Source: a candidate division TA06 bacterium ADurb.Bin131 (lineage in GTDB: Bacteria > Ratteibacteria > UBA8468 > B48-G9 > DTJG01). Taken from it: 64,000 bases of DNA. The stretch spans positions 36,261-100,260 of the forward strand of contig MWDQ01000150.1 of NCBI GenBank assembly GCA_002070645.1. The letters are read 5' to 3'. The notes under the pieces were generated by a model. It saw only the letters and a program-made list of their open reading frames with translations. It was not told the origin of the DNA and did not search any database. The translations under genes were made by a program, and so were the position numbers. Of the stretch, positions 6,076 to 35,395 are shown in pieces. How positions within the stretch are numbered: the first letter of the stretch is position 1; each line of letters begins with the position of its first letter.

Positions 6076-6081
6076 AGCGGA

Positions 6082-6366: not shown

Positions 6367-6367
6367 A

Positions 6368-7477
<1,110 letters not shown>

Positions 7478-17172: not shown

Positions 17173-17801
17173 CTGATTTTTTTCCCCTCTCTTATTTTAC
17201 GAGGAGTATATCTTATTGGAACCTCGTATATCCTGATTTTCTTTTTTGCAATCTTCGCTGTTACTTCAGGACAAAACTCAAATCCTTTACAGTTAAGTTT
17301 GATACCTTTTAAGATATCACTCTTAAACATCTTATAACATGTGGGTTCATCAGTGATTGATGTTCCATAAAGAAGGTTTGTAAAAAAGGAAAGAATCCTT
17401 CCCCCAACATAAAATGAAAAAGAAGATGTTTGATTCTTCCCAAGTATTCTCGAGCCATAAACAACATCAGCCCTGCCCTGCTCTATTGGCTCTATCATCC
17501 TGAGATAATCCATTGGTTCATATTCAAGGTCTGCGTCCTGTATCACAACAACATCACCTGTAATCTCGTTTATTGCCCTTCGAATGGCATATCCTTTTCC
17601 AATATTCTTCGGTTGAAAAATAACCTTAATCAATGGGAATTTTTGCTGGGAAATCTTTTTGAGTATTTGACTTGTTCCATCTGTACTGCCATCATCAACA
17701 ATAATAATTTCTTTATTAATAGGAACTGTAAGAAGTTTTTGAATAATGACCTCAATGGTATTTTTTTCATTATAAACAGGAACGATCACAGAAAGTTTCA
17801 T
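17121..17801 (-). CDS. GT2 glycosyltransferase (short Dpm1-like form); paralog of the ORF at 25005
   Basis: Motifs: LSVIVPVYNEKNTI...IIIVDDGSTDGT...QDADLE. Confidence 0.7.
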   Translation of the reverse strand: MKLSVIVPVYNEKNTIEVIIQKLLTVPINKEIIIVDDGSTDGTSQILKKISQQKFPLIKVIFQPKNIGKGYAIRRAINEITGDVVVIQDADLEYEPMDYLRMIEPIEQGRADVVYGSRILGKNQTSSFSFYVGGRILSFFTNLLYGTSITDEPTCYKMFKSDILKGIKLNCKGFEFCPEVTAKIAKKKIRIYEVPIRYTPRKIREGKKIRWKDGVIAIWTLIRYRF

Positions 17802-18988: not shown

Positions 18989-19638
18989 ATTTTTAACCTG
19001 AATGTAAAAAGTGAATTATGTCCATATATACCAATCCTCGGAAGTGAATAAGAATCAAAACTACCCTTCCAGTTTGTAATAACCGCACCAGCGTACCCAG
19101 CATTTTTAACTGTTTGCCTGATTTTTTCGTTTTGACGACCATAAGGGTAGCAAAAAAAATCAATCCTCTGTCCAATGTTTTTTTCAATATATTTCTTTGA
19201 TTCAAATATTTCACTCCACACCTGTTTTCTTGGAAGTTTGGTAAGATCTGGATGTGTTAATGTATGAGAACCAAAGATAACGCCTGATTTTAACATCTCC
19301 TGAATCTCTTTCCATTTAAGGTATCTATCCTTTTCTTTGTCTTTATATCTTTCATGAATTTTCTCTGTTCCAATACTATGGGCAATAAGAAAAATTATTG
19401 GTTTTATCCCATATTTTTTCATAATTGGAAAAGCAATGAAAAAGTTATCTGCAAATCCATCATCAAATGTAACACAAAAAGTTCTTCTATGCGCATTGTT
19501 TTTGATATACTCATATAAAGAAACTGGCTCGTACTTTTCTTTCAATAAAAATCTTATCTGAGATTCAAACATTTCAGGAGAAACGCTTAATGCATCATCA
19601 GGATACCATTTGTTTATTCTATGATATGCAAGAATCAT
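18961..19638 (-). CDS. polysaccharide deacetylase (CE4, NodB homology; ArnD-like)
   Basis: It has the CE4 motifs TFDDG, HSIGTE...H and SHTLTHPDL. Confidence 0.7.
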   Translation of the reverse strand: MILAYHRINKWYPDDALSVSPEMFESQIRFLLKEKYEPVSLYEYIKNNAHRRTFCVTFDDGFADNFFIAFPIMKKYGIKPIIFLIAHSIGTEKIHERYKDKEKDRYLKWKEIQEMLKSGVIFGSHTLTHPDLTKLPRKQVWSEIFESKKYIEKNIGQRIDFFCYPYGRQNEKIRQTVKNAGYAGAVITNWKGSFDSYSLPRIGIYGHNSLFTFRLKIWLKKLRIK

Positions 19639-20353
19639 TTTTGAAGTTTATCCTCTTAAACCTGTATTGTATAATAAGAAATATCATTTTCATACCGAGA
19701 ACAAGTGATTTCCTGAAACTACCTGTTACAGAAGATTTTCCTACCCTCGGTTTATAGTTTACGGGAATCTCGATAAATCTAACATTTGCCTTTGCAACAA
19801 GAAGGGTTAATTCAGGTCCAAAATGTTGTGTTCCTACAGAAAAATGCGGCTTGAGTTTTTCATACAAAGGTCTTTTTATCAATCTCATTGTACAACCAAC
19901 ATCAGTAAGTGTTGTTGTATTGTATAAAAACTCGAGAAGTTTGGCTACAGCCCAATTTCCCCATTTTAAGAAAGCACCCATATTTGCATCTTTCCATATT
20001 AATTCTCTTGTTGTCCTTGTTCCAATAACATAATCAAAATCATCAGAATAGGCGAGCAATTTTATAACATCCCTTCCTGAAAATGTACCATCTGGTTCAG
20101 ATATAATAAAAAGTTCTCCTTTTGCCTCTTCTAATCCCTTCCATATCGCATATCCATAGCCCTGTTTTTTTTCATAGACAAGTTTTGCATTTGTTTTCTT
20201 TACCTCTTCGTCTGTCCCCTTTGCCGCATTATTATTAACAACAATAATCTCGTCAACAAATCCTGATGCAAAAAAATCTTCTATTGCATCTCTGATAGAA
20301 TCTTTCTCGTTATAGGTTGGGAAAATCACACTTACTTTTTTATTCTTCCACAT
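19619..20353 (-). CDS. GT2 glycosyltransferase, Dpm1/Ppm1-like polyprenyl-phosphate sugar synthase
   Basis: Motifs: VSVIFPTYNEKDSI...EIIVVNNN...EPDG (acidic catalytic motif). Confidence 0.65.
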   Translation of the reverse strand: MWKNKKVSVIFPTYNEKDSIRDAIEDFFASGFVDEIIVVNNNAAKGTDEEVKKTNAKLVYEKKQGYGYAIWKGLEEAKGELFIISEPDGTFSGRDVIKLLAYSDDFDYVIGTRTTRELIWKDANMGAFLKWGNWAVAKLLEFLYNTTTLTDVGCTMRLIKRPLYEKLKPHFSVGTQHFGPELTLLVAKANVRFIEIPVNYKPRVGKSSVTGSFRKSLVLGMKMIFLIIQYRFKRINFKNDSCIS

Positions 20354-22079
20354 ATTTCCTCTTATAAATTATAATATAAGGGTTTGCAACCCAGACATCC
20401 TTCGCAGAGAATTTTGTTCTATTAAAGGTTATTCCAAAAAATGAAGCAGGTTTCTGAAATTTCTTCAGTGTATAATAATGCAAAAAAAAGTTTCCAAGGG
20501 TTTCTTCTGTCTGCCATAATGTTTCATATTCGCTGATAATAAAATAATCTGGCTTCGTTGTTTCCAGTTTTTCTTTATCCCATAAAACAGGGATAATATC
20601 ATATCTGTAAAATTGAAAGCTCGGAGTTCTATAAGGAGCCGGCATCTGAAGCATTCCTATCTTTGATTTTTCAGGGATATTCATATTTATCCATCTTCCT
20701 GCCTCTTCACGAATATTCTCCTGCGCAAAAACTCTCGTGTTTGCTCCAGAATAGAAAAATGTTAATATAAGCACAAAAAGTGTTAACATTCCTCCGATAA
20801 TCCTGATTCTTTTTATTACATGAATTAGAAATATCCCTGCAAACATAGCCATAAATGGCATCAGAAATATTCCTCTGCGCACATACCAGGGAGAAAAACA
20901 CGAAAAAATCACCAGTGGTACTATTATTGAGGTAATCAGAAAAATAGAATTACTGTTCCTTTCCTTCATGCATAATAAAATATATCCTGCAATAAAACTC
21001 AATAAAAATGGCCATCCAGCACCGGATTTTAAGGAAGCAAAAACAAAATAGAAAAAATCAGGAGAAAACTTAAAATCTCCTCCTTCAAATTTTAATACCT
21101 TTAGAAAGGTTTCCTTATCAAGAATAAGGAATATATGAATTATGCCAACCACTACAATAAACATCACAATTCCGAAAGCACTGTTTTTCAACATTCTATA
21201 CAAATCTTCCCTTTTCCCATTATACGCTGATATCAATCCTGCAGTAATCATAAACATAATACACACACCATACAAGGAAACAACAGACATAGCAATAGAT
21301 GCAAATATAGCAGAGATAAGATAATATTTTAACTGTTTATTGGAAATTATCTTAAGTCCATATAAAAAAGACAAAAGCACAAAAGGCAATGCAAAGCCGT
21401 AGTAATACCCAAAGTGATTCCACATATTCAATGCAGGACATATACCAAACAGAAAAGAGGAAACAAGTCCAACCTCTGGTCCCCAGAGGTTATTGCTGAT
21501 TGACCAGACAAGATAAATGCTAAAAAGGAACGCAAGAATTAAAAGAATCCTTATGGAAAGGTAAACCTTTTTTAGTTCTCCTGGATGTTCAAGATAAAAA
21601 GTAGAATCCCCCAATTTTATTATTTGGAGAAAATTGCACATACCAAGCCATAATCCTGTAGCATAAACATAAAAACACCCGGGTATTAAAACCTTTGGGC
21701 TGAATTTTTTCTCTTTGGGATTGATATTTGAAAGAGCCGCCAGGGTTATATGTTCATCAGGATAATATGTTCTTAAAAGATATGTGCGCATGGCATTTAT
21801 CTTACCCACTGTTAATGGAACCTTAAAACCACTGAATTTAATAATTTTATCCTCATCATAATCTTTTCGGTACTCATCCCCAGGAGATTTAATCATCTGT
21901 CTTATTTCTTGTCTTGTTTCTGCCATTATAGGAACAAGAGCATTTAGAACTTTTTCATTTCCAAAAATAAGATTAATTATATTCTGTCCAGGAAGTCCCC
22001 ATCCAATTCCCAAAAGATTAATACATAAGGAAATTAACATAATAAAAAACAGTAAAATATAAATTCTTTTCTGTTTCAT
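20340..22079 (-). CDS. polytopic membrane protein, putative GT-C-fold glycosyltransferase (paralog 2 of 3)
   Basis: The 579-aa protein has an N-terminal TM plus GIGWGLP, many TMs and a C-terminal soluble domain (QKPASFFG...ANPYIIIYKRK) homologous to those of the ORFs at 8733 and 23287. Confidence 0.4.
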   Translation of the reverse strand: MKQKRIYILLFFIMLISLCINLLGIGWGLPGQNIINLIFGNEKVLNALVPIMAETRQEIRQMIKSPGDEYRKDYDEDKIIKFSGFKVPLTVGKINAMRTYLLRTYYPDEHITLAALSNINPKEKKFSPKVLIPGCFYVYATGLWLGMCNFLQIIKLGDSTFYLEHPGELKKVYLSIRILLILAFLFSIYLVWSISNNLWGPEVGLVSSFLFGICPALNMWNHFGYYYGFALPFVLLSFLYGLKIISNKQLKYYLISAIFASIAMSVVSLYGVCIMFMITAGLISAYNGKREDLYRMLKNSAFGIVMFIVVVGIIHIFLILDKETFLKVLKFEGGDFKFSPDFFYFVFASLKSGAGWPFLLSFIAGYILLCMKERNSNSIFLITSIIVPLVIFSCFSPWYVRRGIFLMPFMAMFAGIFLIHVIKRIRIIGGMLTLFVLILTFFYSGANTRVFAQENIREEAGRWINMNIPEKSKIGMLQMPAPYRTPSFQFYRYDIIPVLWDKEKLETTKPDYFIISEYETLWQTEETLGNFFLHYYTLKKFQKPASFFGITFNRTKFSAKDVWVANPYIIIYKRKYVEE

Positions 22080-23335
22080 TTGTTCTTTTCAGGAATAAAA
22101 CATCTTATACCAAATACTGCCATTATAATCAAAAAAGGCATCAATGGCTCACGATACCTTATAACTGTCTTGAAAAACAGAATTACGGGAATGGATAGAA
22201 AAATAATCAACAAATATATTAAAAGGTATTCCCTCCATTTTCTCAAAGAAAAAATAAACCCAAGTCCTGCAAGGATAAAAATAGGAAGATTTGTAAGGAT
22301 GGCTACTTTTACATGATAGGATTTATAATTCTCTCCAGGACCCGAAAAGGTGTGAGGTGATATCCTCCAAAATCTAACAAACCTGTCTGCTACAAGACGA
22401 AAATACACATGTGGATTGTTTTTAATAAAATTAAATGCCGCCCTGTAAAAGTATCTATCTGTTTCAACTTCTGACAATCCTTTGATTGCTTTTATAACAG
22501 GTTCATCATATCTACCAGTTGGATCCCAGTATCCAGAATCCTGATAAAGGGATTTCTCGTTGTTTGCAATATAGCAAACAATCCCACCTTCTGTTGATGT
22601 TAGCAAAATTGTCTTATGAATATGGTAGTTTCTTAAAATCCATGGTGTCATTACAATAAAACACGATAAAAGCATATAAACTGTATTTTTAAGAGCAAAC
22701 TTCACATTACATATCACGGTCAGCCATATAAAGATTGCCGGTATAAAAACAAGAAAAAGAGATCTTGTTAAAACTCCAAAACCAAGAACAAAACCAGAAA
22801 TAAAAAATAGAAGTGAATCCTGTTTTTTCTCTGCAAGAAAACATAGATACACTGTAAGTAATGCAAAGAATATTTCAAGAGTAACAGGTACAAGATAACC
22901 AGTCCAGAAAATCCCAGGTGGATAAAAAACATAAAGAAGAGACGTAAGAATCGCTGATTTATTATCTAGAAGAATTCTGCCAAGGGAAAAAAGCAATAAA
23001 CATGTAATAGAACTAACTATTGCAAGACAAATCTTTGCTGCAAGAAAACTATGCCCAAACAATTTATACACGCCTGCAAGAAATAATGGGAATACTGGAG
23101 ACCTCCAGGAATAATAAACAGGACCATCAGAAAAATAGGGATTATTTACCCAGTATCCTTGGCCTGTTGCTAATTTCCATCCCAGTTCATCCCACCAGTC
23201 CCCCCAGACATCAACTGTATTGTCGAGAGTAGAAATAAAGCCAATCCTTAAAATTAATGCAAGAAAAAATATCCCAACAAGAAGGATTATAAGTTTTTTC
23301 TTTTCCATATTAGTATTGTTGGATTTGGATGACAC
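22076..23335 (-). CDS. GT-C glycosyltransferase, PMT_2 / ArnT-like
   Basis: The 419-aa protein has a loop-1 DE motif (WWDELGW), the PMT_2 core (RSPVFPLFLAGVYKLFG...VFYPPGIFWTGYLVPVTLE) and more than 10 TMs. Confidence 0.65.
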   Translation of the reverse strand: MSSKSNNTNMEKKKLIILLVGIFFLALILRIGFISTLDNTVDVWGDWWDELGWKLATGQGYWVNNPYFSDGPVYYSWRSPVFPLFLAGVYKLFGHSFLAAKICLAIVSSITCLLLFSLGRILLDNKSAILTSLLYVFYPPGIFWTGYLVPVTLEIFFALLTVYLCFLAEKKQDSLLFFISGFVLGFGVLTRSLFLVFIPAIFIWLTVICNVKFALKNTVYMLLSCFIVMTPWILRNYHIHKTILLTSTEGGIVCYIANNEKSLYQDSGYWDPTGRYDEPVIKAIKGLSEVETDRYFYRAAFNFIKNNPHVYFRLVADRFVRFWRISPHTFSGPGENYKSYHVKVAILTNLPIFILAGLGFIFSLRKWREYLLIYLLIIFLSIPVILFFKTVIRYREPLMPFLIIMAVFGIRCFIPEKNK

Positions 23336-25008
23336 CAGTCATAAGGAATAGATTCAGGATGACTGAATACCAGATTAAAAAAATGTGGTTCACTCTTAAA
23401 CTCCTTGATGATTTTATAATCAGATAGAAGTTTTTTTATGTTTTCAAAAGACCCTCCTCTAACCCATTGATACTCACTTACAACAAAATATTCTGAATAC
23501 TTGATTGTTTCTTTTGATGCTCCGATAAGTATATTATATTTCAAAAATTGAAATGGCGGTGTTCTCCACGGAGAGGGTGCTTCGAGAAGTCCAATTTTTG
23601 ATCCATAAGGAATATTATTATTAATCCATATACCCGCAGATGTTCTAACATTTTCCTGAGAAAATAAGTTCACATACGATAAGGAAAAAATAAATGTATA
23701 TAATATTCCTATAGAAATCAATATTTTTGGAAATTGTTTTTTTATCTTCGTCATACCCAGAACAATAACAACAAAAATATAAGGGTATAATATAAAAGCA
23801 TAGTGAACCCATCTACCTGTTGAAAACCCAAAATAAAGAAATCCTGGAAGTATACTCAAAAAAATCAGTATAAATCTTTTATCCTGCCTTATTAAAAAAC
23901 AAACAACAAGAAAAACAATGGAAATAAGATATGTTGCTGTACCAAGTCCATACCTCAGGGATGTCGTCATAAAATACTTGAGATTAGCAAAATTAGAGGA
24001 ACCCTTCCAGTATGACTGTATATAAAACATTTCATTGATGAATTCTTTGAAAGAAATTAAAACATAAGGGTTTGTCAAAAAGTAGGAAAACAAAAAACAA
24101 ACAAGACATATCAGTATATTTTTGAATAAACTCTTAAAATCAGTAGACACAAGAAATATCATAAAAATGAAAGTAATAAAAACATATCCATAAGAAAGGA
24201 TGCTGCCCATTGAAATACCTGAAAATAAACAACCAGCAATAAGCCATTTTCTTTTCTTCTCATCCATAAATCTAAAAGCACAGTAGAGAGCAAGAATAAC
24301 CCATAACATTCCATAGCAGTAAGGTTTAAGATAATGAGACCACATAACAAAAACAGGAGATATCGCGAACAACATTGACACAAGAAAAGAGGCACTATCA
24401 TCCTTCAAAATATAAGAAGACAGAAAATAAAAACATATCACTGAAAAAATAAAGAAAATCCCACCGAAGATTCTTAAAAGCGTATAAAGACGACCAATTT
24501 TATCAGGATTTGTAAAATAAAAACTAATGTCACTGTGCAATTCAGCAATTTTAAGAGCAGAACAAATCTTCAAAAAAATTCCAGCAGGATAAAGATACGC
24601 TCCTCCATACTCGAAAAAATGCGGGTTGAAATCAAACCTCGAGGGATTCATCTTGCTTAAACTAACAAGAACAGCCTGTTCATCTGCGCCATAGGATCTT
24701 ATCAAATAGCTTCTCATTGAATTTATAATTTCTCTTGAAACAAGATGTTTTTTTCCATTAATATTAATCTCTACCTTTTCTGCAGGATTATAACTGCCTG
24801 AATATGGTGCACCATAAAATTCTTGCATCTCACGTATTTCTTCATGAGCATCCCTCATTAATTCTGAAAGATTTTGAACTTCTGTTTCTCCATTAAACAC
24901 AGAAGAAATACGGCCTTTATCAGGAACACCCCAGTTTATTCCCTTAAAGTGAAAAAAACCTGTTATTAAAATAAGCAACAGCAAATAAAATATTTTTTTA
25001 ACACTCAT
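23287..25008 (-). CDS. polytopic membrane protein, putative GT-C-fold glycosyltransferase (paralog 3 of 3)
   Basis: The 573-aa protein has GINWGVP after the first TM, the string NPSRFDFNPHFFEYGG (almost identical to that in the ORF at 8733) and the C-terminal domain SEPHFFN...HPNPTILIWKRK. Confidence 0.4.
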   Translation of the reverse strand: MSVKKIFYLLLLILITGFFHFKGINWGVPDKGRISSVFNGETEVQNLSELMRDAHEEIREMQEFYGAPYSGSYNPAEKVEININGKKHLVSREIINSMRSYLIRSYGADEQAVLVSLSKMNPSRFDFNPHFFEYGGAYLYPAGIFLKICSALKIAELHSDISFYFTNPDKIGRLYTLLRIFGGIFFIFSVICFYFLSSYILKDDSASFLVSMLFAISPVFVMWSHYLKPYCYGMLWVILALYCAFRFMDEKKRKWLIAGCLFSGISMGSILSYGYVFITFIFMIFLVSTDFKSLFKNILICLVCFLFSYFLTNPYVLISFKEFINEMFYIQSYWKGSSNFANLKYFMTTSLRYGLGTATYLISIVFLVVCFLIRQDKRFILIFLSILPGFLYFGFSTGRWVHYAFILYPYIFVVIVLGMTKIKKQFPKILISIGILYTFIFSLSYVNLFSQENVRTSAGIWINNNIPYGSKIGLLEAPSPWRTPPFQFLKYNILIGASKETIKYSEYFVVSEYQWVRGGSFENIKKLLSDYKIIKEFKSEPHFFNLVFSHPESIPYDWCHPNPTILIWKRKNL

Positions 25009-25688
25009 TTTATAATTCTATATTTTAAGATTGAAAATATTGCCTTGAAACCATCCTTCCAACCTATTTTCTTCCCTTTTTTTCTCGGGCTATAGGAGAT
25101 TGGAATTTCTTTGATTTTATAACCTTGTTTCAAAATTTTACATGTTATCTCTGGTTCTATCTCAAACCTTTCTGAAGTGAGATTTAAGGACTGTAGAAGT
25201 TTTCTCGGACATAACTTATAGCAGGTTTCCATATCAGAAAGTTTTGCATTAAAAACAAGGTTTGTAAAAGATGTAAGAAATTTATTCGCAAGTATAGATA
25301 ATAATGGTAAGGAAGTATTTGTTTTACCCAGAAATCTTGAGCCATAAACCACCTGACAATTTTCTGTTTTAATTGCATTTATCAGTTTCAAATAATCATT
25401 CGGATTGAGTTCTAAATCAGCATCCTGTATAATAACAAAATCATTTTTTGCCTCTTTCAGTCCACACCGGATTGCATACCCTTTACCCCTATTTTTCTCG
25501 AGAAATATAACCTTAAAATGATTTTTTTTATTTCTGTGTATGTTTTCAAGTAATTGTCTTGTCCCATCTGTTGAACCATCATCAATAACAATAATTTCTT
25601 TTTCAACAGGGACTTTTTCTACATCTAAAAGAACCTGCTCTATTGTATGTCTTTCATTATAAACAGGTATTAGCACTGAAATTTTCAT
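25005..25688 (-). CDS. GT2 glycosyltransferase (short Dpm1-like form); first gene of the long minus-strand operon
   Basis: Motifs: ISVLIPVYNERHTI...IIVIDDGSTDGT...QDADLE. It is a close paralog of the ORF at 17121. Confidence 0.7.
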   Translation of the reverse strand: MKISVLIPVYNERHTIEQVLLDVEKVPVEKEIIVIDDGSTDGTRQLLENIHRNKKNHFKVIFLEKNRGKGYAIRCGLKEAKNDFVIIQDADLELNPNDYLKLINAIKTENCQVVYGSRFLGKTNTSLPLLSILANKFLTSFTNLVFNAKLSDMETCYKLCPRKLLQSLNLTSERFEIEPEITCKILKQGYKIKEIPISYSPRKKGKKIGWKDGFKAIFSILKYRIIK

Positions 25689-25842: not shown

Positions 25843-27768
25843 ATGAATAAAACACTCTGGCAGTATTATGTTGATAAGGCAACTGAAATAACTGATAATG
25901 CACTTGAGGATATTAAAAATCTCGAGCAGTGGAAACAGGAAAGACAACAAATCAAAAAGGAATTCTTCATCTCTATGGGACTTAATAGTATCCTTGAAAA
26001 AAGTACCTCTGTAATTAAAACCCTCGGTGAATTTAAGGGAGATGGTTTTATTGCAAAAAAGATTGCATATCAAATCTTACCTGATTGCTGGAGCAGCGGT
26101 CATTTCTATCTTCCAGATCCTTTGCCTGAAAAAAAATTACCCGCTGTGCTGTACGCGTGTGGGCATGCTGGAATAGGAACACATTGGTATCAAAAACATG
26201 CAATTATGTGGGCAAGAAGAGGATATGCCTGTTTTGTTTTTGAAACGATTATACAAAGCGAGAATACTGGCTGGCATCATGGCTTACACACAGGAAAACG
26301 ACTTGACTGGATTTCTCTTGGTTATACAGCAGCAGGTGGAGAACTTCTTAATTCAATTCATGCACTCGATGTTTTATGTCAGATGCCAGAGGTTGATATT
26401 AATAGAATCGGGGTAACAGGAATTTCAGGCGGAGGAGCCCATAGCCATTTTCTTGCAATTGCAGATGAAAGGATTAAAACAGTTGCAACATCAGCAGGCA
26501 TCAGTTCAATTAAATCAGCACTTGGAAACAGAACAATGTTTCAGCACTGTGATTGTATGTATGCCCATGGCAATTTTCAAAGGGATATCAGTGAATTTTC
26601 TGCTTTGATTGCTCCAAAACCAATACTTTATTGTTTTGCGTCACACGACAATCTTTTTGCTGTAGATGAATATAAAACGCTTTACAGTAAAGTAAAAAGG
26701 ATATACGAACTTTATGGGTGTCCTGAAAAATGTGAACTTTTTGAGTACCCAGGACCTCACGCATATTCAGATGCTTCTATAAAAAAAATCAACGAGTGGT
26801 TTGATAGATATGTTGCTGAAGAGCAACATCCTGATGTTGGCCTTAATAACAATGATATTATTCCTGAACATATCATGAGTGTGTTTAATGGAAAATCACC
26901 TGAACCAAATAGATTAAATCTACTACCAGAATTATTAACAGTTCAAAGGACAAGGCCACTACCGAAAAATGAAGATGAGTGGGAAATAATTCGTACTGAT
27001 ACACTAAAGCAATTAAAAACCAATGTTTTCCATTGGCTTGATAGATGTAATGAAAAAATGGAAATAAGAAATATTGGAAAATGGGATTTTGAAGGCAGGT
27101 CTTTTTCAAGGTACAGAGCAGAAAATAAAGGCATGGAGGTTTATATTGAAGCATATGCTCCAAAAATAACAGCAGAAACAACAATTATTGCCCTCGGTGA
27201 TTATGGTCATAATACAACTACACTGATGAAAAAGATTGGTGAATCAACTAAAAACTGTAATCAGGTATTGGTTGAATCAAGGGCATGTGGAAGAAATGCT
27301 GCAAATATAGAACATGGAAATTATTGCCTTTACAGGGCTGGTGCACTTGTAGGAATTACTCCTGTAATGATGTGGATGAATGACCTAAAGTATATTGTTG
27401 AATTCTTTCGTAATATTTTAGAATATAAAACAGATATTGTCTTGTACGGAGCAGGCGAAGCCGCTGGCGCCTGTCTTTATTATGCAATCTTTGACGAGAG
27501 AATCTCAGGCGTTATTATTGATGATGCACCTGACACACATGCGAAAGGTTGTTATATACCTGGAATTCTAAAAGAGATTGATATTACAGAGGCATCTGGA
27601 CTTATTGCTCCGAGGATGTTTGGAGTTGTCTTTCCCGAAATATTAAACCTGTGGGTTTCAAAGATGCACTGGGGAATAAGGGTGTATGAACGACTGGGAA
27701 TAAAAAACAGGTATATTATGTCCCATAGCACCAATATTGCAATAACAAAGGTATTATCAGATATTTAA
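25843..27768 (+). CDS. tandem-duplicated alpha/beta-hydrolase (acetyl-xylan-esterase/S9-like); the second copy lacks the catalytic Ser
   Basis: Domain 1 has the nucleophile elbow GVTGISGGGAH. Domain 2 aligns position for position (DIVLYGAGEAAGAC...DERI) but has Gly in place of Ser. Confidence 0.6.
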   Translation: MNKTLWQYYVDKATEITDNALEDIKNLEQWKQERQQIKKEFFISMGLNSILEKSTSVIKTLGEFKGDGFIAKKIAYQILPDCWSSGHFYLPDPLPEKKLPAVLYACGHAGIGTHWYQKHAIMWARRGYACFVFETIIQSENTGWHHGLHTGKRLDWISLGYTAAGGELLNSIHALDVLCQMPEVDINRIGVTGISGGGAHSHFLAIADERIKTVATSAGISSIKSALGNRTMFQHCDCMYAHGNFQRDISEFSALIAPKPILYCFASHDNLFAVDEYKTLYSKVKRIYELYGCPEKCELFEYPGPHAYSDASIKKINEWFDRYVAEEQHPDVGLNNNDIIPEHIMSVFNGKSPEPNRLNLLPELLTVQRTRPLPKNEDEWEIIRTDTLKQLKTNVFHWLDRCNEKMEIRNIGKWDFEGRSFSRYRAENKGMEVYIEAYAPKITAETTIIALGDYGHNTTTLMKKIGESTKNCNQVLVESRACGRNAANIEHGNYCLYRAGALVGITPVMMWMNDLKYIVEFFRNILEYKTDIVLYGAGEAAGACLYYAIFDERISGVIIDDAPDTHAKGCYIPGILKEIDITEASGLIAPRMFGVVFPEILNLWVSKMHWGIRVYERLGIKNRYIMSHSTNIAITKVLSDI

Positions 27769-27788: not shown

Positions 27789-28892
27789 TTAGGGCAGAAT
27801 AAATCTTGCAAGTAAACTTCTCTTGATTTTTATTGCCCTGTGTGGGCATACCTCAAAACAACATAAACAATTTATACACTTTTTCCTGTTTATTTTCAAA
27901 TCCTCTGATATCGCCTTTACAGGACAAACCTTAAAACACTCCATACATTTTCTGCAATGTTTGTGTTCAATTACTGGTATAATATTAAGGCGGTTTGCTG
28001 AAAACCTTAAAACATTTGAAAGTACTGGTTTATCCTGAATCTTAAAAATTGCAGAAGATAATGGGGGACAAAAATTATTGATTACTTCTGGTTTATCACC
28101 AACAACCTCAAAATCAGGTACACCATATTCTGCGCTATAAATCTTAAGAAAAACAACATCCTCAAGTAAAAGTCCTGCAAGACCCGCACAAAAGATATCA
28201 ACACATACTGCATCCTTTCCTGCAATAAGATAACCATAATGTCTTTTTCTCCCTGAGGATGGACCATTTTTATCCATTATTTCAACTGCATCGATAAGAT
28301 TGAAAATAATTCTGTTTTTAAGAAGATTATATAATTCAACAATAAATCTATTAAAAAACTCTGGTTCAGGAAATTTTGTATGAAGAAGACCTTTAGAATA
28401 ACCTGATATCAGACCATAAAGATTTTTCATACATAAAGACAAAACTGTAATATTATGCGTCTTGAATTTAGGAAGATTAAATACAGGATAGGTAAAAACA
28501 AGGTCAGAAACAGGAAAAGAAACAATCCTACCTGAAATATTCAGGTTAAATAAGGTGCTTTTACCTTCGAGTTTTACAAGTGTTGCCTTTGTTTTTGAAG
28601 CAACATCAGAATATCCACATTTTTGCCAGTATTGTTCAATCCCTTTATGTGACCCAGGGGGACTATCGCCGATATAAATCTTTTCTGGAAGGATTTCTGA
28701 AAGGACCTCGAGGATAACAGGATGGGTTGTTACCGCTTCGTCAGGACTGCGGGCAGAAAGCATGTTTGGTTTAAGGAGTATTCCCTGTTCTGAAGATTCC
28801 CAACCAAGTAAATCAAAAATCCTGTTTATTGCATCCCTTACAGTTGATTTTTTGTAATCTCTACATTTAACAATAGCAATTTTTTTCTGCAT
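27789..28892 (-). CDS. DUF362 domain protein with a C-terminal 2x[4Fe-4S] ferredoxin domain
   Basis: The N-terminus MQKKIAIVKCRDY is typical of DUF362. The C-terminus has two CxxCxxCxxxCP motifs (CRKCMECFKVCP / CINCLCCFEVCP). Confidence 0.65.
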   Translation of the reverse strand: MQKKIAIVKCRDYKKSTVRDAINRIFDLLGWESSEQGILLKPNMLSARSPDEAVTTHPVILEVLSEILPEKIYIGDSPPGSHKGIEQYWQKCGYSDVASKTKATLVKLEGKSTLFNLNISGRIVSFPVSDLVFTYPVFNLPKFKTHNITVLSLCMKNLYGLISGYSKGLLHTKFPEPEFFNRFIVELYNLLKNRIIFNLIDAVEIMDKNGPSSGRKRHYGYLIAGKDAVCVDIFCAGLAGLLLEDVVFLKIYSAEYGVPDFEVVGDKPEVINNFCPPLSSAIFKIQDKPVLSNVLRFSANRLNIIPVIEHKHCRKCMECFKVCPVKAISEDLKINRKKCINCLCCFEVCPHRAIKIKRSLLARFILP

Positions 28893-29066
28893 ATTAATAT
28901 TTTATCATCAACAGCAAGTCGTAGATTCAAAACTAAATCTTAAATGTAAAAAAAGCAACCATTAAACTATATCATAGTTTTATTGTCTAATTTTCCAGAC
29001 AAAAACTCAGATGATTTAAGGCAGTTCTTATGATATACTTATAAAAATGTCTAAAAGAAGGTAGTT

Positions 29067-30668
29067 ATGAAAGGAAATAATTGTTGTATTGGATTAAAGG
29101 TTTACTTTTCTGGATTTTTAGCCATGATTTTTCTTTTCCCCTGTTTTTTATCTGCACAGATAATACATCCTGTTGTTAAACCATATGAAGATGAAGTATG
29201 GTCTACTCCTCTAAATCTCATTGATCTACAGATAGCAGAAATTCTGAAAAAAAATGGCCTGAAGATGAGAAACCCCTGTTCTGACAGTGTATTTATCAGA
29301 CGGGTTTATCTCGATGTAATAGGAACACTTCCAAAGCCAGAAGAGATTGATGATTTTATGAAAGACACAAAACCTGATAAACGAGCAAGATTAATAGATA
29401 ATCTTCTTGAAAGAGAGGAATTTGCTCTTTACTGGACAATGAAATGGTGCGATATACTACGGGTTAAATCAGAATATCCAGTAAACCTCTGGCCAAACGC
29501 AGTTCAGGCATATTATCAGTGGATTTATGAAAATATTCGTAAAAACCAGCCCTATGACATATTTGTGCGTGAACTTTTAACATCGAGTGGAAGTAATTTC
29601 AGGGTACCAGCAGTTAATTTTTACAGGGCAGTTCAATCAAAGGATTCATTATCAATAGCAAAGGCAGTTGCTCTTACATTTATGGGAGTACGTCTTGAAA
29701 AAATGCCAGAAAATCAACAAAAGAATATATCACTGTTTTTCTCGCTCGTTACATATAAAGGAACAAAGGAATGGAAGGAAGAAATAGTTTATTCAAATCC
29801 TGATACAACAAAGACAATTAGAGCAGTGTTGCCTGATGGTAGATTCAGAGAAATACTGCCTGAACAGGACCCAAGATGTGTATTTGCCGACTGGCTTATT
29901 TCCCCTTACAATGAATATTTCAGTAAAAACATCGTCAATAGAATATGGGCATGGCTTATGGGACAGGGTATTATTTCTCCTGTTGATGATATATATCAGA
30001 AGATAACAGATAATAATAAAAATATACTTGGTACCCTCGAAAATGAACTTATAAAATCCAATTATGATTTAAAGCATATTTACAGGTTAATTCTTAATTC
30101 ACGCACATATCAACAATCATCTATATTAGGAGAAGATAAACCCGATATATTCACTCAGTTTGCATTTTATAAGGTTCGCCAGATTGATGCAGAAGTCCTC
30201 CTTGATGCATTGTGCTGGATATCTGGTAGGTATGAAGGTTATGTAAGCCAGATTCCAGAGCCATATACATTTATTCCAAATACCAACAGAACAATTACGC
30301 TTGCCGATGGAAGTATCACAAGTCCTTTTTTGATGATATTCGGCAGACCATCTCGTGATACTGGACTTGAATCAGAAAGAAATACAAGCCCAACTGATAA
30401 ACAACGGCTTTATCTATTGAACTCAAGCGATATTCAAAAAAAAATTAAATCAAGCCCTGTTCTGAAAAAGGCATACCAGCAGGTGTGGAAAAATAAAAAA
30501 GAAAGTATTAATCTGATTTATAAAATTATTCTTTCACGGTTTCCAACAACTGAAGAATCCTCTATCTGCGAAGAATTTTTTACAAATTCAGGACTTCCTG
30601 CTGATCAGTCAGCAATGACCATTGCCTGGGCTTTGATAAACAGCAAAGAATTTTTATACAGACATTGA
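29067..30668 (+). CDS. DUF1549/DUF1553 domain protein (Planctomycete-type), secreted
   Basis: It has a signal peptide, the DUF1549 hallmark VFIRRVYLDVIGTLPKPEEIDDFMKD...ERW-like string, and the DUF1553 string IVNRIWAWLMGQGI...ILNSRTYQQSS. Confidence 0.7.
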   Translation: MKGNNCCIGLKVYFSGFLAMIFLFPCFLSAQIIHPVVKPYEDEVWSTPLNLIDLQIAEILKKNGLKMRNPCSDSVFIRRVYLDVIGTLPKPEEIDDFMKDTKPDKRARLIDNLLEREEFALYWTMKWCDILRVKSEYPVNLWPNAVQAYYQWIYENIRKNQPYDIFVRELLTSSGSNFRVPAVNFYRAVQSKDSLSIAKAVALTFMGVRLEKMPENQQKNISLFFSLVTYKGTKEWKEEIVYSNPDTTKTIRAVLPDGRFREILPEQDPRCVFADWLISPYNEYFSKNIVNRIWAWLMGQGIISPVDDIYQKITDNNKNILGTLENELIKSNYDLKHIYRLILNSRTYQQSSILGEDKPDIFTQFAFYKVRQIDAEVLLDALCWISGRYEGYVSQIPEPYTFIPNTNRTITLADGSITSPFLMIFGRPSRDTGLESERNTSPTDKQRLYLLNSSDIQKKIKSSPVLKKAYQQVWKNKKESINLIYKIILSRFPTTEESSICEEFFTNSGLPADQSAMTIAWALINSKEFLYRH

Positions 30669-32020
30669 AGGATAAAAATTTGAGACGAAAAAATAAAATG
30701 AAGAAACAAAAAATAAAACCACAAATCCTGGTTTTCCTGGTAATAGTTTCTGTATCTCTCATGATAAACAATAATCTTATTGCATCAGATACTTCTGCTC
30801 AACAAAAACAACAGGCAAAATCAGTTATTCAAATATGGTTGTGGGGAGGGCCTTCTCAAAATGATACATTCGACCCAAAGCCAGATGCAGGATATGACTA
30901 TTGTGGCCCACTTTCAAAATCAATCCCTACAAACGTTCCTGGAATAGAGATTAATGATTCCCTGCAGATGCTTGCAAAGCAGGCAGATAAATTTTCAATT
31001 ATCAGAAGTATGACCCATGGTATAGGAGCCCATGAAACAGCAGCATATTATATGCAAACAGGCCATAAACCAGGAGTAGGTCTTGTATATCCATCCCTTG
31101 GTGCAATTGTATGCTTGTTCAGGGGCTATGGAAAAGGATACACAGGAAAAATTCCACCCTATATTGTTCTTACAACATCCCAAGGCAGATTTTCTGAAGA
31201 AGGATTTCTTGGCCCTGGATATAAACCATTTGTTACAGGTGGGGATCCAAACCAGAAGGTTTTTGCTGTTGAGGGTATTATCTCTCGTGATGTTTCGGAC
31301 CAGATGCAGGTAAAGCGCAGAGAATTGCTTAAAAAGATTGATACCCTCGGAAAATCAATGCCTGGCTGTCCTGATTTTGAACTTTTCAATGAATGTGAAA
31401 AAGAAGCGTATGATTTGATTTTAGGGGAACCTCGAAAGGTTTTTGATCTCTCGCAGGAACCAGACACTATAAGGGATAGATATGGCAGAAACTGGTTTGG
31501 GCAGACATGCCTGGTTGCAAGACGTCTTGTTGAAATAGGAGTGCCTTATATCACAATCAATTATCCTGGTTGGGATACACACAAACAACACTTTCAGACA
31601 ATGCAGAGAAAACTTGCTGAATTTGACCAGGGTTTTTCAGCACTTCTTGAAGACCTATCAAGCCGTGGGCTTCTCGATACAACAATTATATGGTGTTGTG
31701 GAGAATTTGGAAGAACCCCAAAAATAGAATGGGATCCACCATGGAACGGAGGCCGGGGACACTGGGGAAATTGTTTTTCTTCAGTTGTCGCAGGAGGCGG
31801 ATTCAAGGGTGGATGTGTTGTTGGAAAATCTGATTCAAAAGCAGAATATGTTGTTGAAAGACCTGTATATCCAGAAGATTTATTAAGGAGTATGTTGATA
31901 CTTCTCGGGATTAACCCTGACGAACAGATGCCAAATGATAAAGGACTTGATATAAAGGTTATGCCATACCCGGATAATTATTCAGGTAATGGCGAGCTTA
32001 AAGAAATTATGGAAAAATGA
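30665..32020 (+). CDS. DUF1501 protein (sulfatase/alkaline-phosphatase-like superfamily)
   Basis: Motifs: VIQIWLWGGPSQNDTFDPKPDA, DTHKQHF and CCGEFGRTP...GRGHWG. The start overlaps the stop of the previous gene. Confidence 0.7.
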   Translation: MKDKNLRRKNKMKKQKIKPQILVFLVIVSVSLMINNNLIASDTSAQQKQQAKSVIQIWLWGGPSQNDTFDPKPDAGYDYCGPLSKSIPTNVPGIEINDSLQMLAKQADKFSIIRSMTHGIGAHETAAYYMQTGHKPGVGLVYPSLGAIVCLFRGYGKGYTGKIPPYIVLTTSQGRFSEEGFLGPGYKPFVTGGDPNQKVFAVEGIISRDVSDQMQVKRRELLKKIDTLGKSMPGCPDFELFNECEKEAYDLILGEPRKVFDLSQEPDTIRDRYGRNWFGQTCLVARRLVEIGVPYITINYPGWDTHKQHFQTMQRKLAEFDQGFSALLEDLSSRGLLDTTIIWCCGEFGRTPKIEWDPPWNGGRGHWGNCFSSVVAGGGFKGGCVVGKSDSKAEYVVERPVYPEDLLRSMLILLGINPDEQMPNDKGLDIKVMPYPDNYSGNGELKEIMEK

Positions 32021-34209
32021 AAAATAAAAAAGATTCAACAAATGTTTTTCGCCTGACACTGGGATTATTTCTATTGTTTGTATCCTGTGTGTTTTCTCAG
32101 GTAAAAGAACCATATATTGGTTATATTTATCCTGCTGGCGGACAAAAAGGAACTGTTTTTAACATAACAGTTGGTGGACAAAACCTAAATGGAACAAAAA
32201 CAGTTTATTTTTCAAAAAAAGGCATTAGCGCAAGTATTATCAATTATCAAGGTTCATCAGGCCCATTAAATCAAAAGCAGATTGAGGAACTCAGACGCAG
32301 ATTAGATGAGATAAGATTAAAAAGAGCAGGACAAACTCCTCCAAAAGATAGCACAAGAGCTGAAACAGAGAAACCTGTTGCGCTTCCTGATATTCCTGAA
32401 TTAAGAGATCTCGAAAATAAGTCAGCAAAAGATCTTGCCAGGATTTCTGCCAAGTATCTTAATTCTCAGAATAAACCAAAGCCACCAATTGCTGAAGAAA
32501 TAACACTATCAGTTAAGATAGAACAGGACACAGAACCAGGTGATTGTGAAATTCGTCTGAAAACGCCAAATGGAATTACAAACCCTGTTTTGTTTCAGAT
32601 AGGTGAATTTCCTGAGGTTACCTGCACCTCCAACCAATACAGATATGAACTTGAAGAAACAATGCAGGACACGCGGATTTTTCAAATCCCGGTTGTACTG
32701 AATGGAAGAATAATGCCAGGAAAAACAAATAAGTTTCTACTGCAATTACAAAAAGATAAAGATTTAGTTTTCTATGCTGAAGCAAGAAAGATCATTCCAT
32801 ACATTGCTGACGCTGTACCTGGATGGTTTCAAGCAGTACTTGTACTTTATGATAAAAATGGGAAAGAGATTTCTTTTGTTGATGATTGTGGTTATGACCC
32901 TGATCCTGTTTTAATATTTCATGTTCCTGAAACAGGAATGTATACCCTCGAGATAAGAGATGCTTTATACAGAGGAAGAGAAGATTTTGTCTATCGTATT
33001 TATGCTGTGGAAAGATCTTATGCAAAACAACTCTTTCCATCTGGAAGATGTGGAGGCGTAAAAATTGCAGATGGGGATATTCCTTTGATGCCACCTGAGA
33101 GGGTAAATTTTCAGCAGTATAAAGAAAAAGAATACACAAAGAACTATGTCCACTCAATACCAACACCTGTGATGATTTCTGGTTGCATCAATTATCCTGG
33201 AGATATTGATAGATATAGATTTTATGGGAAAACAGGTGAAACAATTGTCGTGGAGGTTTATGGAAGAAGGATTGGCTCATTAATAGATTCAATGGTAAAA
33301 ATCATTAACTCAAAAGGAGAGGTAATACAAAAAAATGATGATACAGAAGACATTGAATATGGGCTGATTACACATCAATCTGATTCTTATGTTATGGCTA
33401 AAATTCGAGAATCAGGGTACTACACTGTACAGATTTCAGACATTCAAAATCATGGTGGTCCTGATTATCAGTACTTTGTAAGAATAGGTCCTCCTCAGCC
33501 AGATTTTTCTCTTATAATTTCTCCTTCACAGATAAATATACCCACAGGTGGCATTGCTGTTGCAACACTGTACGCAATAAAAAAAGATGGCTGGGACCAG
33601 GACATTAATCTAAGATTAAAAGGTATGGATGGTTTTGTTCTTGATGGAGCAGTAATCCCAAAAGGAAAACAAAGTATCAGGATAACGATAAAATCCCCAC
33701 AAAAATATTCAGGCCAGATTACTCCCGTGGATTTAGAAGGTACCTCTATAATTAATGGAACACAGGTTAGCCGAATTGCCAGACCAGCAGAAAATATGAT
33801 GCAGGCATTTGCCTATACACATCTTGTACAATCAGAAGAATTGCTTATTGCACTAACACAAACAAGGTTCAGACCAGTAAAAATAGAAATACCTTCTATG
33901 GGACTAAAAATTCCTGCAGGGGGCTCGTCAAAGATATTATGCGCATTAGAAACATGGTTTAAGCCATCTTCATCTCTTTCTATTAACTTTGAATTAAACA
34001 ATCCTCCTTCAGGGATAAAAATCAGGGACCAGTCCTTTGTCTCTGATAAATACATTCTTACAATTGAGGCAGATAAAAAACTTACAGGATACAAAGATAA
34101 TCTAATAATTGAGGTTATCGAAGAAATATCAATGCCTGGAGGACAAAAAAGAAAGGTACCTGTTGGATTTTTGCCTGCTATACCAATTGAGGTTTTAGAA
34201 AATGAGTAA
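32017..34209 (+). CDS. secreted (possibly lipo-)protein with repeated PPC/pre-peptidase-C-terminal-like beta domains
   Basis: It has a signal peptide ending LFVSC. There are at least two PPC-like motifs (GDIDRYRFYGKTGETIVVEVYG...; YTLEIRDALYRGREDFVYRIYA). The start overlaps the DUF1501 stop. Confidence 0.5.
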   Translation: MKNKKDSTNVFRLTLGLFLLFVSCVFSQVKEPYIGYIYPAGGQKGTVFNITVGGQNLNGTKTVYFSKKGISASIINYQGSSGPLNQKQIEELRRRLDEIRLKRAGQTPPKDSTRAETEKPVALPDIPELRDLENKSAKDLARISAKYLNSQNKPKPPIAEEITLSVKIEQDTEPGDCEIRLKTPNGITNPVLFQIGEFPEVTCTSNQYRYELEETMQDTRIFQIPVVLNGRIMPGKTNKFLLQLQKDKDLVFYAEARKIIPYIADAVPGWFQAVLVLYDKNGKEISFVDDCGYDPDPVLIFHVPETGMYTLEIRDALYRGREDFVYRIYAVERSYAKQLFPSGRCGGVKIADGDIPLMPPERVNFQQYKEKEYTKNYVHSIPTPVMISGCINYPGDIDRYRFYGKTGETIVVEVYGRRIGSLIDSMVKIINSKGEVIQKNDDTEDIEYGLITHQSDSYVMAKIRESGYYTVQISDIQNHGGPDYQYFVRIGPPQPDFSLIISPSQINIPTGGIAVATLYAIKKDGWDQDINLRLKGMDGFVLDGAVIPKGKQSIRITIKSPQKYSGQITPVDLEGTSIINGTQVSRIARPAENMMQAFAYTHLVQSEELLIALTQTRFRPVKIEIPSMGLKIPAGGSSKILCALETWFKPSSSLSINFELNNPPSGIKIRDQSFVSDKYILTIEADKKLTGYKDNLIIEVIEEISMPGGQKRKVPVGFLPAIPIEVLENE

Positions 34210-35395
34210 AAAAATTATCAGTTATACGTTTAACCTCAAAGATATCCCGGTATCAGTAAATTTTTCATATTTTACAGGAGTAAATAGAATCAATGAATAC
34301 CATATCACCATAGTTCCAACAAAATATAAGGATATCTATGAACAGACACAACTGCTTCAAAACTCCTACAAAGAAACACTTAAACACCTTAGCCTTAATT
34401 TAGAAACAGTTGTATTCAAAAGATTTTTCTTCAGTGATATTTATAACCAGTATAAAATTATTAAAAATCATCCTTTTATAAACCCTAAAACTAATGAGGA
34501 GAAATGCGCTATTTCCCTTATTTCTCAGCCACCATGTCCACCAGCAAAGATTGCACTATGGGCATATCATATTCAAGATAAAAACTGTACTATTTCAAAG
34601 TATATGGACAACTCAATATTTTCAATCTGCAGGAATAATATTAAACACTTCTGGGATACAAACATCACATCTGTTAAAGGAAACACCATATCTCAACAAA
34701 CATTTGATATTCTCGATAAATACAATTCTTCACTTGAAAAAAGAAATATGAAACTTGCCAGCAATGTCGTGAGAACATGGTTTTTTATTAAGGATATAGA
34801 TTCAAATTATAAAGATTTTACAGAAGCAAGAAAAAATTATTTCAAAGAAAAAGGGCTGATCCCACAGACACATTTTATTACAAGCACTGGTGTTGAGGGA
34901 GAATCTGTAGATATAAATGCAAAACTTTCAATGGATGCATACTCAATCTCTGGCATTCAATCACAGCAGATTGAATTTTTGAGGGCTCCTGAATATATAA
35001 GTCCAACTTATGTTTATGGGGTTACATTTGAAAGAGGATCAATTATAAAATACAATGACCGCAAGCATATATTTATTTCAGGTACAGCCAGTATTAATAA
35101 TAAAGGCGAAATTGTATATCCTGGCGATATACTTAAACAATTTGAACACACATTGAAAAACATAGAGATTCTTCTTAACCAGGCAGGTGCAGGATTTAAA
35201 GATGTGTGTATCTTTATTGTGTATATCAGGGATATAACCGATGTACAGATTATTCATCGCGAGATGAGAAAACGATTTAAAGATACACCATTTATTTTAG
35301 TTTTAGCGAAAGTATGCAGACCTGGCTGGCTTATTGAGATAGAATGTCAGGCAATACTCACCCAAGATAATCAGGGACTTCCTGAATTCTTATAG
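34202..35395 (+). CDS. tandem RidA/YjgF (endoribonuclease L-PSP)-like domain protein
   Basis: The C-terminal domain FISGTASINNKGEIVYPGDILKQFEHTLKNIEILLNQAGAGFKDVCIFIVYIRD fits RidA. The N-terminal half shows the same pattern in degenerate form. The start overlaps the upstream stop. Confidence 0.55.
   Translation: MSKKIISYTFNLKDIPVSVNFSYFTGVNRINEYHITIVPTKYKDIYEQTQLLQNSYKETLKHLSLNLETVVFKRFFFSDIYNQYKIIKNHPFINPKTNEEKCAISLISQPPCPPAKIALWAYHIQDKNCTISKYMDNSIFSICRNNIKHFWDTNITSVKGNTISQQTFDILDKYNSSLEKRNMKLASNVVRTWFFIKDIDSNYKDFTEARKNYFKEKGLIPQTHFITSTGVEGESVDINAKLSMDAYSISGIQSQQIEFLRAPEYISPTYVYGVTFERGSIIKYNDRKHIFISGTASINNKGEIVYPGDILKQFEHTLKNIEILLNQAGAGFKDVCIFIVYIRDITDVQIIHREMRKRFKDTPFILVLAKVCRPGWLIEIECQAILTQDNQGLPEFL

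Follow-up and report, generated by a model that had tools for sequence, protein, structure and literature searches.

What is encoded by an operon that joins two protein families typical of Planctomycetes and Verrucomicrobia to a cytoplasmic member of the Rid superfamily, and do its genes belong together? The question is raised by a four-gene locus of the candidate division TA06 bacterium ADurb.Bin131, a Candidatus Ratteibacteria metagenome-assembled genome (MAG) with a GC content of approximately 35%. The stretch analysed, here called the window, comprises 64,000 nucleotides (contig MWDQ01000150.1, positions 36,261 to 100,260), and the operon occupies window positions 29067-35395. To our knowledge, few uncharacterised families of Planctomycetes and Verrucomicrobia are as large as those of the DUF1501 and PSCyt/PSD proteins encoded there, which reach tens of copies per genome and have an uncharted biochemistry. 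As detailed below, the four genes form a conserved cassette, and the product of the fourth is predicted to resemble chorismatases.

All four open reading frames (ORFs), termed g1 to g4, are located on the plus strand, and their limits are exactly those of the original prediction, which had been made from the sequence alone. The gene product of g1 (29067-30668) is a 533 amino acid protein with a PSCyt2 (DUF1549) and a PSD1 (DUF1553) domain (Pfam E-values 8e-33 and 7e-39), and that of g2 (30698-32020, 440 amino acids; 30665-32020 and 451 amino acids with a TTG start) is a DUF1501 protein (E 3e-92). An all-beta multidomain protein of 730 amino acids containing a tandem PPC-like pair is encoded by g3 (32017-34209), as seen in the AlphaFold2 (AF2) model and Foldseek search, with a Pfam PPC match of 23.7 bits that stays below the cutoff of 25.9. 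The last gene, g4 (34202-35395), encodes a 397 amino acid, cytoplasmic protein of the Rid superfamily with a predicted chorismatase fold (AF2 and Foldseek), which matches Ribonuc_L-PSP (E 3e-23) over two stretches. The DUF1549, DUF1553 and DUF1501 domains that had been proposed were thereby confirmed, as was Ribonuc_L-PSP, with PPC as the sub-threshold case.

Conservation of the four-gene cassette

Relatives of g4 were searched in one genome per species and found in at least 593 species; the best 80 loci were examined for neighbouring genes. In 29 of these 80 loci, g3 lies directly upstream of g4, accompanied by g2 and g1 where the contig reaches. The g4 homologues with 58%, 55%, 49%, 47%, 46% and 44% amino acid sequence identity were each traced to their contig and are part of the same cassette, in the order PSCyt2/PSD1 gene, DUF1501 gene, gene for a protein of approximately 630-800 amino acids and Rid-like gene, all on the same strand; their flanks are unrelated. 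Order and strand are identical in all metagenome contigs examined that reach far enough. According to their labels, the organisms belong to at least six phyla, namely Ratteibacteria, Omnitrophota, Armatimonadota (including Fimbriimonadaceae), Hydrogenedentota (Hydrogenedentales), Planctomycetota (Phycisphaerae, Sedimentisphaerales and Planctomycetales) and Verrucomicrobiota (Akkermansiaceae, Coraliomargarita and Verrucomicrobiaceae E54).

The median intergenic gaps across orthologous cassettes are 22 nt between g1 and g2, 2 nt between g2 and g3 and 5 nt between g3 and g4. The pairwise-identity matrices of the four genes are correlated (Spearman rho 0.59-0.86), with g2 as the most conserved member (mean pairwise identity 62%), followed by g1 (53%), g4 (48%) and g3 (41%). 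In these phyla, the four genes have been passed on and have evolved together as one unit. The tight operon proposed for the window is borne out by the short median gaps, two overlaps and the constant order and strand, and the co-occurrence of the four genes holds in related and distant genomes alike, with changing flanks.

Among the flanking genes of the cassette loci, no family recurs beyond lineage-level synteny, so that no transporter or regulator travels with the cassette. A TonB receptor, a permease or a Fur-type regulator is not encoded within it, and the partners of g4 found in Bacteroidota (see below) are absent from all cassette loci. One Bacteroidota-labelled MAG (locus L089, positions 4049-9199) carries g1, g2 and g3 followed not by g4 but by greA, which lies on the opposite strand. 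The exported triad therefore appears to be the core of the system and g4 its usual but separable member. The description of the four components as a stoichiometric unit is not borne out in this respect, since g4 also occurs alone or in a different operon of Bacteroidota. In another locus (L008, 2774-9269) the cassette is split into many short ORFs, which suggests either frameshifts from assembly errors or a decaying copy.

Fold and putative active site of g4

In public databases, g4 is annotated as "Rid family hydrolase" or "RutC", and the original prediction had described it as a tandem RidA protein. The AF2 model (predicted local distance difference test, pLDDT, 89.5; predicted template modelling score, pTM, 0.91) instead displays three consecutive YjgF-like lobes (residues ~1-126, 132-250 and 257-387), each with the topology beta-beta-beta-alpha-beta-alpha-beta-beta. 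The top seven Foldseek matches are the chorismatases FkbO (4bps) and Hyg5 (5ag3, 5a3k), with E-values from 3e-18 to 1e-16 over approximately 345 columns and template modelling (TM) scores of 0.60 (query) and 0.71 (target). The coverage by single-domain RidA structures is limited to about one third of the chain. The profile of the g4 family also matches 5ag3 (E 1.4e-10), and the best NCBIfam match is the FkbO/Hyg5 chorismatase model TIGR04444, reached with 52 bits against a cutoff of 325 and over lobes 2 and 3 only; the match to TIGR00004 amounts to 50 bits at a cutoff of 106. Judged from the model, g4 is a single-chain pseudo-trimer with the chorismatase fold rather than a tandem RidA, and a tandem RidA imine deaminase is not supported by its architecture, given the end-to-end match to FkbO and Hyg5 and the invariance of the residues described next.

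The acid that protonates the enolpyruvyl methylene in Hyg5 is E334, and the residues G173, G240 and C327 constitute the CH-II signature (PMC7170507). These align with E379 and with G230, G294 and C372 of g4, respectively. An SGTAS motif is common to both proteins, and the C-terminal VCRPGWLIEIE of g4 aligns with VCRSDLLVEIE of Hyg5 (CRxxxL[IV]E[IV]E). Candidate active-site residues of g4 are R191, Y203, R210, G230, E277, R278, S293-G-T-A-S297, C372, R373, E379 and E381. In total, 16 candidate residues are essentially invariant in 86 homologues; E379, G230, G294 and C372 are among them, and ten others are polar or aromatic. The Arg and Glu typical of RidA align with R373 and E379 in the alignment with 2dyy, exclusively in lobe 3.

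With the chorismatases FkbO, Hyg5 and XanB2 (4bps, 5ag3, 5a3k; EC 3.3.2.13 and 4.1.3.45), g4 thus shares the single-chain, three-lobed YjgF pseudo-trimer, the SGTAS and C-terminal motifs, the catalytic Glu and the Hyg5-type Gly/Gly/Cys. It differs from them in being approximately 55 residues longer and in lacking a polyketide, xanthomonadin or ubiquinone context. The g4 family comprises 368 clusters at 50% identity (E <=1e-30), almost all of them with proteins of 360-410 amino acids, and by sequence it is a family distinct from canonical chorismatases. With the RidA/Rid imine deaminases, it has the YjgF fold and the Arg and Glu of the C-terminal lobe in common, and covalent pseudo-trimers are known in that family ("3x-RidA" fusions; Niehaus et al. 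2015, PMC4433059). RidA itself is a homotrimer of subunits of approximately 125 amino acids with residues of the Arg105/Glu120 type at each interface, whereas g4 would be a fused pseudo-trimer with degenerate sequences in lobes 1 and 2, active-site motifs of the chorismatase type and one expected site per chain.

The exported proteins g1, g2 and g3

Export signals were judged by inspection of the N-termini of orthologues plus Pfam TAT_signal matches. Signal peptides or twin-arginine motifs are found on g1, g2 and g3 of the orthologues and none on g4, in agreement with the earlier assignment of three products to the cell envelope and one to the cytoplasm. A CxxCH motif is absent from g1, g2 and g3 in every orthologue inspected. 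The N-terminal Sec signal peptide of g1 is kept in its orthologues, and Pfam gives no PSCyt1, Big_2 or WD40 match. No relative of g1 with a solved structure was found by profile search; thermonuclease matches obtained for g1 and g2 (E 0.01-0.1) were dismissed as noise.

In most phyla, the N-terminus of g2 is a twin-arginine translocation (Tat) signal, e.g. "ITRREALRRG" or "SRRDFLRLG", and Pfam TAT_signal matches 4 of 24 orthologues. Ratteibacteria-type g2, including the copy in the window, has lost the twin-arginine motif and starts from ATG with a plain hydrophobic, Sec-like signal. Near-invariant motifs of g2 are D56-T-F-D59-PKP, M105-T106-H107, GWD293-T-H295, GEFGRTP and GGRxH355, so that the candidate site residues D56/D59, T106, D293, H295 and H355 are near-invariant as well. 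Weak Pfam matches to Phosphodiest and Sulfatase were obtained for three to four of the 24 orthologues. The sulfatase motif C/S-x-P-x-R was not noticed on reading the g2 sequence, and sequence and profile searches returned no relative with a solved structure. We take DUF1501 to belong to the Pfam clan of the alkaline phosphatases; the arrangement of a first Asp followed by a Thr approximately 50 residues on presumably resembles that of the Thr-nucleophile enzymes of the alkaline phosphatase superfamily (NPP, PhnA, EptA, LtaS). Its sequence features make g2 a putative exported metallo-hydrolase of this superfamily.

The g3 protein is exported via a Sec signal and modelled as a string of beta-sandwiches (AF2, pLDDT 81.5). 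An N-terminal Ig-like domain with a helical insert (residues ~33-200) is followed by two PPC/collagen-binding-domain-like sandwiches (~220-332 and 366-491) and two C-terminal Ig-like domains (~497-727). Apart from generic Ig-like arrays, Foldseek returned one specific match, to the two collagen-binding (PPC-type) domains in tandem in ColG (5iku, E 5e-11). Most homologues of g3, which form a large, unnamed family, carry PF04151. No catalytic domain was detected by Pfam or Foldseek, and since the model contains only Ig-like and PPC-like sandwiches, g3 is, on this structural basis, a non-catalytic binding or scaffold protein, which agrees with the role guessed for it before.

Relation to known DUF1501 systems

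Clusters of genes for DUF1501 and PSCyt/PSD1 proteins were described in bacteria of the Planctomycetes-Verrucomicrobia-Chlamydiae (PVC) superphylum (Planctomycetes, Verrucomicrobia and Lentisphaerae) by Kamneva et al. 2012 (PMC3542564), who proposed a role in electron transport. One four-gene type, the most complex, consists of a DUF1501 protein, a signal peptide-bearing protein with weak PPC support, a PSCyt1/Big_2/PSCyt2/PSD1 protein and a PSCyt1/WD40 protein (PMC3542564). He et al. 2017 (PMC5615132) reported that PSCyt2 genes adjoin a gene family of unknown function. Like these clusters, the cassette pairs a DUF1501 protein, often Tat-exported, with a PSCyt2 plus PSD1 protein. The adjacent PF07394 and PF07583+PF07587 genes of the window and of all cassette loci belong to this pair family, and both proteins of the pair bear export signals (Tat or Sec). 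The weak-PPC protein of the most complex cluster, that of Verrucomicrobium spinosum, has a counterpart in g3 by domain type. In contrast to that cluster, g1 contains neither PSCyt1, as the missing CxxCH also indicates, nor Big_2, and the fourth gene encodes a cytoplasmic protein with predicted chorismatase fold instead of a PSCyt1/WD40 protein. The cassette also extends to Ratteibacteria, Omnitrophota, Armatimonadota and Hydrogenedentota. A haem-based electron transfer function as proposed by Kamneva et al. is inapplicable to this subtype, which has no CxxCH motif.

No paper linking DUF1501, DUF1549 or DUF1553 with Rid or chorismatase proteins was found in the literature searched. The earlier statement that the operon is not a described system is therefore supported for the four-gene combination, within the literature searched, and too broad for its parts, since clusters of DUF1501, weak-PPC and PSCyt/PSD1 proteins are known. 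Three component types are shared with those clusters; the differences lie in the fourth gene of the Rid superfamily, the absence of cytochrome c motifs and the much wider range of phyla.

Occurrence of g4 outside the cassette

In 49 informative loci of the best 80, a g4 homologue (35-43% identity) is present without g1, g2 and g3. In at least 25 loci of Bacteroidota it is the last or next-to-last gene of another conserved operon. In Phocaeicola plebeius DSM 17135 (L082, 3836-13209), this operon encodes a porin, an imelysin (Peptidase_M75), a di-haem oxidoreductase (DHOR, PF06537), a Porin_O_P protein, a 241 amino acid lipoprotein containing CxxCH and without a Pfam match, g4 and the cytochrome c synthase CcsBA. 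In three other loci (L060, L069 and L076), g4 is directly followed by the CcsBA gene without the imelysin genes. The literature searched contains no description of a chorismatase-like gene in an iron-associated imelysin/DHOR operon. Imelysin/DUF1111 operons are under Fur control and have been implicated in the uptake of iron (Xu et al. 2011, PMC3143127), and in a marine member of the Bacteroidetes an imelysin-like gene shares its regulation with iron-homeostasis genes (PMC9478572).

Like the cassette, the imelysin/DHOR operons encode an extracytoplasmic multi-protein system, and in the Bacteroidota form the g4 homologue is the only cytoplasmic member. Unlike the cassette, they include haem c proteins and CcsBA, and they contain no homologue of g1, g2 or g3; a relation of these three to the proteins of the Bacteroidota operon was discarded after profile-profile comparison (HH probabilities <=1.1%). 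Clustering by identity separates a Bacteroidota cluster of 42 g4 copies, none of which is cassette-linked, from a cluster containing all 36 cassette copies and eight further ones. The two clusters do not differ in the putative active-site residues. Homologues of g4 are present in cultured Bacteroides, Phocaeicola and Parabacteroides species.

The other contexts are heterogeneous. In a Luteolibacter MAG (L039, 11157-15379), a cassette-free g4 is followed by an aldo/keto reductase gene and a gene for a protein of approximately 1100 amino acids with a hydrazine-synthase-alpha middle domain (HZS_alpha) and an FGE-sulfatase domain (Pfam); a second Luteolibacter MAG (L074, 4504-8714) has the same ORF pattern, judged by size. 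Genes for small 2-oxoglutarate (2OG)-Fe(II) oxygenases are located on both sides of g4 in an uncultured proteobacterium (L087, 9110-11841), and in a Dysgonamonadaceae MAG g4 lies in a Dak/DeoC locus. None of these contexts, nor the lone genes, provided a consistent functional clue.

Proposed function and alternative explanations

We tentatively regard the operon as a self-contained module, a haem-free subtype of the DUF1501/PSCyt2-PSD1 envelope systems typical of the PVC superphylum, in which the exported hydrolase g2 and its partners g1 and g3 are served by a cytoplasmic, enolpyruvyl-cleaving g4; this seems to us a realistic possibility, still short of an even one. The catalytic component outside the cytoplasm would be g2, probably with T106 as nucleophile and D56/D59, D293, H295 and H355 as Asp/His ligands of a metal. 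A Thr nucleophile would place the enzyme closer to phosphodiesterases or phosphonate hydrolases than to formylglycine sulfatases. The proteins g1 and g3 may act as non-catalytic periplasmic partners that bind or present the substrate. The cytoplasmic substrate of g4 would be an alpha-substituted acrylate, for which the enolpyruvyl ether of chorismate is the most likely candidate; E379 would protonate the methylene as in Hyg5, yielding pyruvate and a small hydroxy-aromatic acid for use by the exported proteins. Since an identical active site is found beside an unrelated periplasmic system in Bacteroidota, g4 might supply a common diffusible small molecule, e.g. a hydroxybenzoate from chorismate, rather than perform a DUF1501-specific catabolic step. 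In its widest form, this idea makes the g4 family a new chorismatase-like class whose diffusible product is needed both by the DUF1501/PSCyt2-PSD1/PPC triad of PVC-like phyla and by the imelysin/di-haem oxidoreductase system of Bacteroidota, which is speculative and in our view rather doubtful.

Several observations weigh against the proposed module. The catalytic residues of g2 are predicted from motif spacing. The identity of g4 to solved chorismatases is only 17-19% and, together with the 52 bits reached against the TIGR04444 cutoff of 325, this implies that its substrate may not be chorismate. R373 and E379 are at the same time the hallmark of RidA imine deaminases, so that the chemistry is not assignable from the sequence alone. 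The cassette contains no gene for a small-molecule exporter or a product importer. The triad without adjoining g4 in L089 demonstrates that the link of g4 to g1, g2 and g3 is not obligatory, and outside the cassette and the Bacteroidota operon, g4 is found alone, often so in gut Bacteroidales, or among unrelated housekeeping genes.

The alternative put forward in the original prediction, a RidA-type enamine/imine deaminase by which reactive intermediates from the chemistry of the cassette, e.g. 2-aminoacrylate, are quenched, is considered unlikely. The C-terminal lobe of g4 does match Ribonuc_L-PSP (E 3e-23) and, weakly, TIGR00004, R373/E379 correspond to the RidA Arg/Glu pair, and the public Rid/RutC annotation points in the same direction. 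However, the sequence resemblance to RidA is confined to one of the three lobes, the chain can be superposed on chorismatases over its whole length, and its SGTAS and Cys-Arg match Hyg5 and not the SGQ and Ala/Ser-Arg of RidA. Moreover, the cassette encodes no pyridoxal phosphate- or flavin-dependent enzyme that could form an enamine, and g1, g2 and g3 are exported to a compartment other than that of g4. A role of the cassette in metal acquisition, probably of iron, would make it an analogue, not a homologue, of the imelysin/DHOR operon, with g4 making or destroying an aromatic chelator. The position of g4 inside porin-imelysin-DHOR-porin-cytochrome c-g4-CcsBA operons of Bacteroidota and the iron-related regulation of imelysin genes (PMC3143127, PMC9478572) are in line with such a role. 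Chorismate-derived hydroxybenzoates are classic chelator precursors. Nothing ties g1, g2 or g3 to iron, though, and they have no homologue among the proteins of the Bacteroidota operon (HH probabilities of at most 1.1%, see above); a TonB receptor, permease and Fur-type regulator are missing from the cassette, and from the Hyg5-type signature the expected product is a mono-hydroxybenzoate, a compound that chelates poorly. Metal acquisition is therefore quite improbable.

As the sole cytoplasmic product among exported ones, g4 could also be a maturation factor or private chaperone that assists the DUF1501 enzyme in cofactor insertion or in Tat proofreading, the more so as g2 is of the Tat type in most phyla. 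Dedicated partners in the cytoplasm are common for Tat substrates. Rid proteins are reported to be capable of holdase activity (PMC4284807). We rate this as having little probability. Ratteibacteria-type cassettes retain g4 although their g2 no longer has a twin-arginine motif; Bacteroidota operons, and loci in which g4 stands alone without a DUF1501 gene in the vicinity, have g4 copies with the same invariant residues; and the invariant polar residues of its pocket look like those of an enzyme active site. That g4 is a mere syntenic passenger without a functional tie to g1, g2 and g3 might be suggested by the 49 informative loci in which it lacks them and by the L089 triad. Such an explanation is very hard to reconcile with the position of g4 immediately 3' of the triad on the same strand in all 29 cassette species loci and all metagenome contigs examined, with its persistence in at least six phyla amid unrelated flanks at a median gap of 5 nt, or with the correlated divergence of the genes, and is given almost no weight. 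An anti-phage defence function was rejected: no PADLOC defence family was matched by g1, g2 or g3, and g4 gave only marginal matches on its generic Rid lobe (E 4e-5 and 9e-4).

The cassette is also of use for the study of DUF1501 proteins in general. It is compact, devoid of haem c motifs and strongly conserved (g2 is approximately 60% identical between phyla), and reaches as far as Ratteibacteria and Omnitrophota. The fold and catalytic residues of g4 predict an assayable chemistry, in which an enolpyruvyl or enamine group is cleaved and pyruvate is released, and the link of the cassette to such a soluble protein makes the old DUF1501 question experimentally approachable. The g4 family also flags the imelysin/DHOR operon of gut Bacteroidota, which is found in cultured, genetically tractable species. 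If a product of g4 were indeed needed by both systems, its identification would be the first biochemical entry to the hugely expanded, functionally dark DUF1501/PSCyt families.

Gene junctions and neighbourhood in the window

The original prediction had listed three ATGA-type overlaps. A true ATGA overlap is present at the g2/g3 junction and an 8-nt overlap at the g3/g4 junction, both with an ATG as downstream start. The g1/g2 junction reads TTGA, and an overlap results only if g2 starts at the TTG at 30665. The alternative ATG at 30698, 29 nt past the g1 stop, is the likelier start, because the signal peptides of orthologues begin at this position, g1 and g2 are separated by a positive gap in orthologous cassettes and NCBI annotates the 440 amino acid form (JGI: 451 amino acids). 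The TTG start was judged unlikely on these grounds, and g1 and g2 probably do not overlap. The cassette had further been called a single copy, and no paralogue is encoded in the 64-kb window, to which this check was confined.

The 174-nt intergenic region upstream of g1 (28893-29066, referred to the plus strand), read from the sequence, separates it from a divergent DUF362/ferredoxin gene and is presumed to be the promoter region of the operon. Promoter-consensus and terminator scans at the operon scored no better than shuffled sequence, and Rfam yielded no riboswitch or other known RNA ahead of either the cassette or the Bacteroidota g4 operon. The divergent gene (27789-28892, minus strand) encodes a protein with DUF362 and di-[4Fe-4S] ferredoxin domains. 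It is also located beside the cassette in the closest relatives (L001 and L002) and not in other phyla; it and V-ATPase genes recur as neighbours only in Ratteibacteria relatives. Its retention in the closest relatives only indicates that it is probably a case of lineage synteny and not a part of the module.

The sign of the GC skew flips at approximately 25-26 kb and 44 kb, tracking gene orientation in long same-strand blocks, with no obvious replication origin in the window. A 641 amino acid protein with a weak, partial match to acetyl-xylan esterase (AXE1) is encoded on the plus strand (25843-27768) between the DUF362 gene and a block of about 18 co-directional, mostly overlapping genes on the minus strand (7729-25688). 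The products of the latter include a UDP-glucose/GDP-mannose dehydrogenase, an NAD epimerase/dehydratase, an S-adenosylmethionine (SAM)-dependent methyltransferase, three GT2 glycosyltransferases, a polysaccharide deacetylase and four PMT_2/ArnT-like membrane glycosyltransferases. The block resembles an Arn-like cluster for envelope glycosylation in which ArnT paralogues are unusually numerous.

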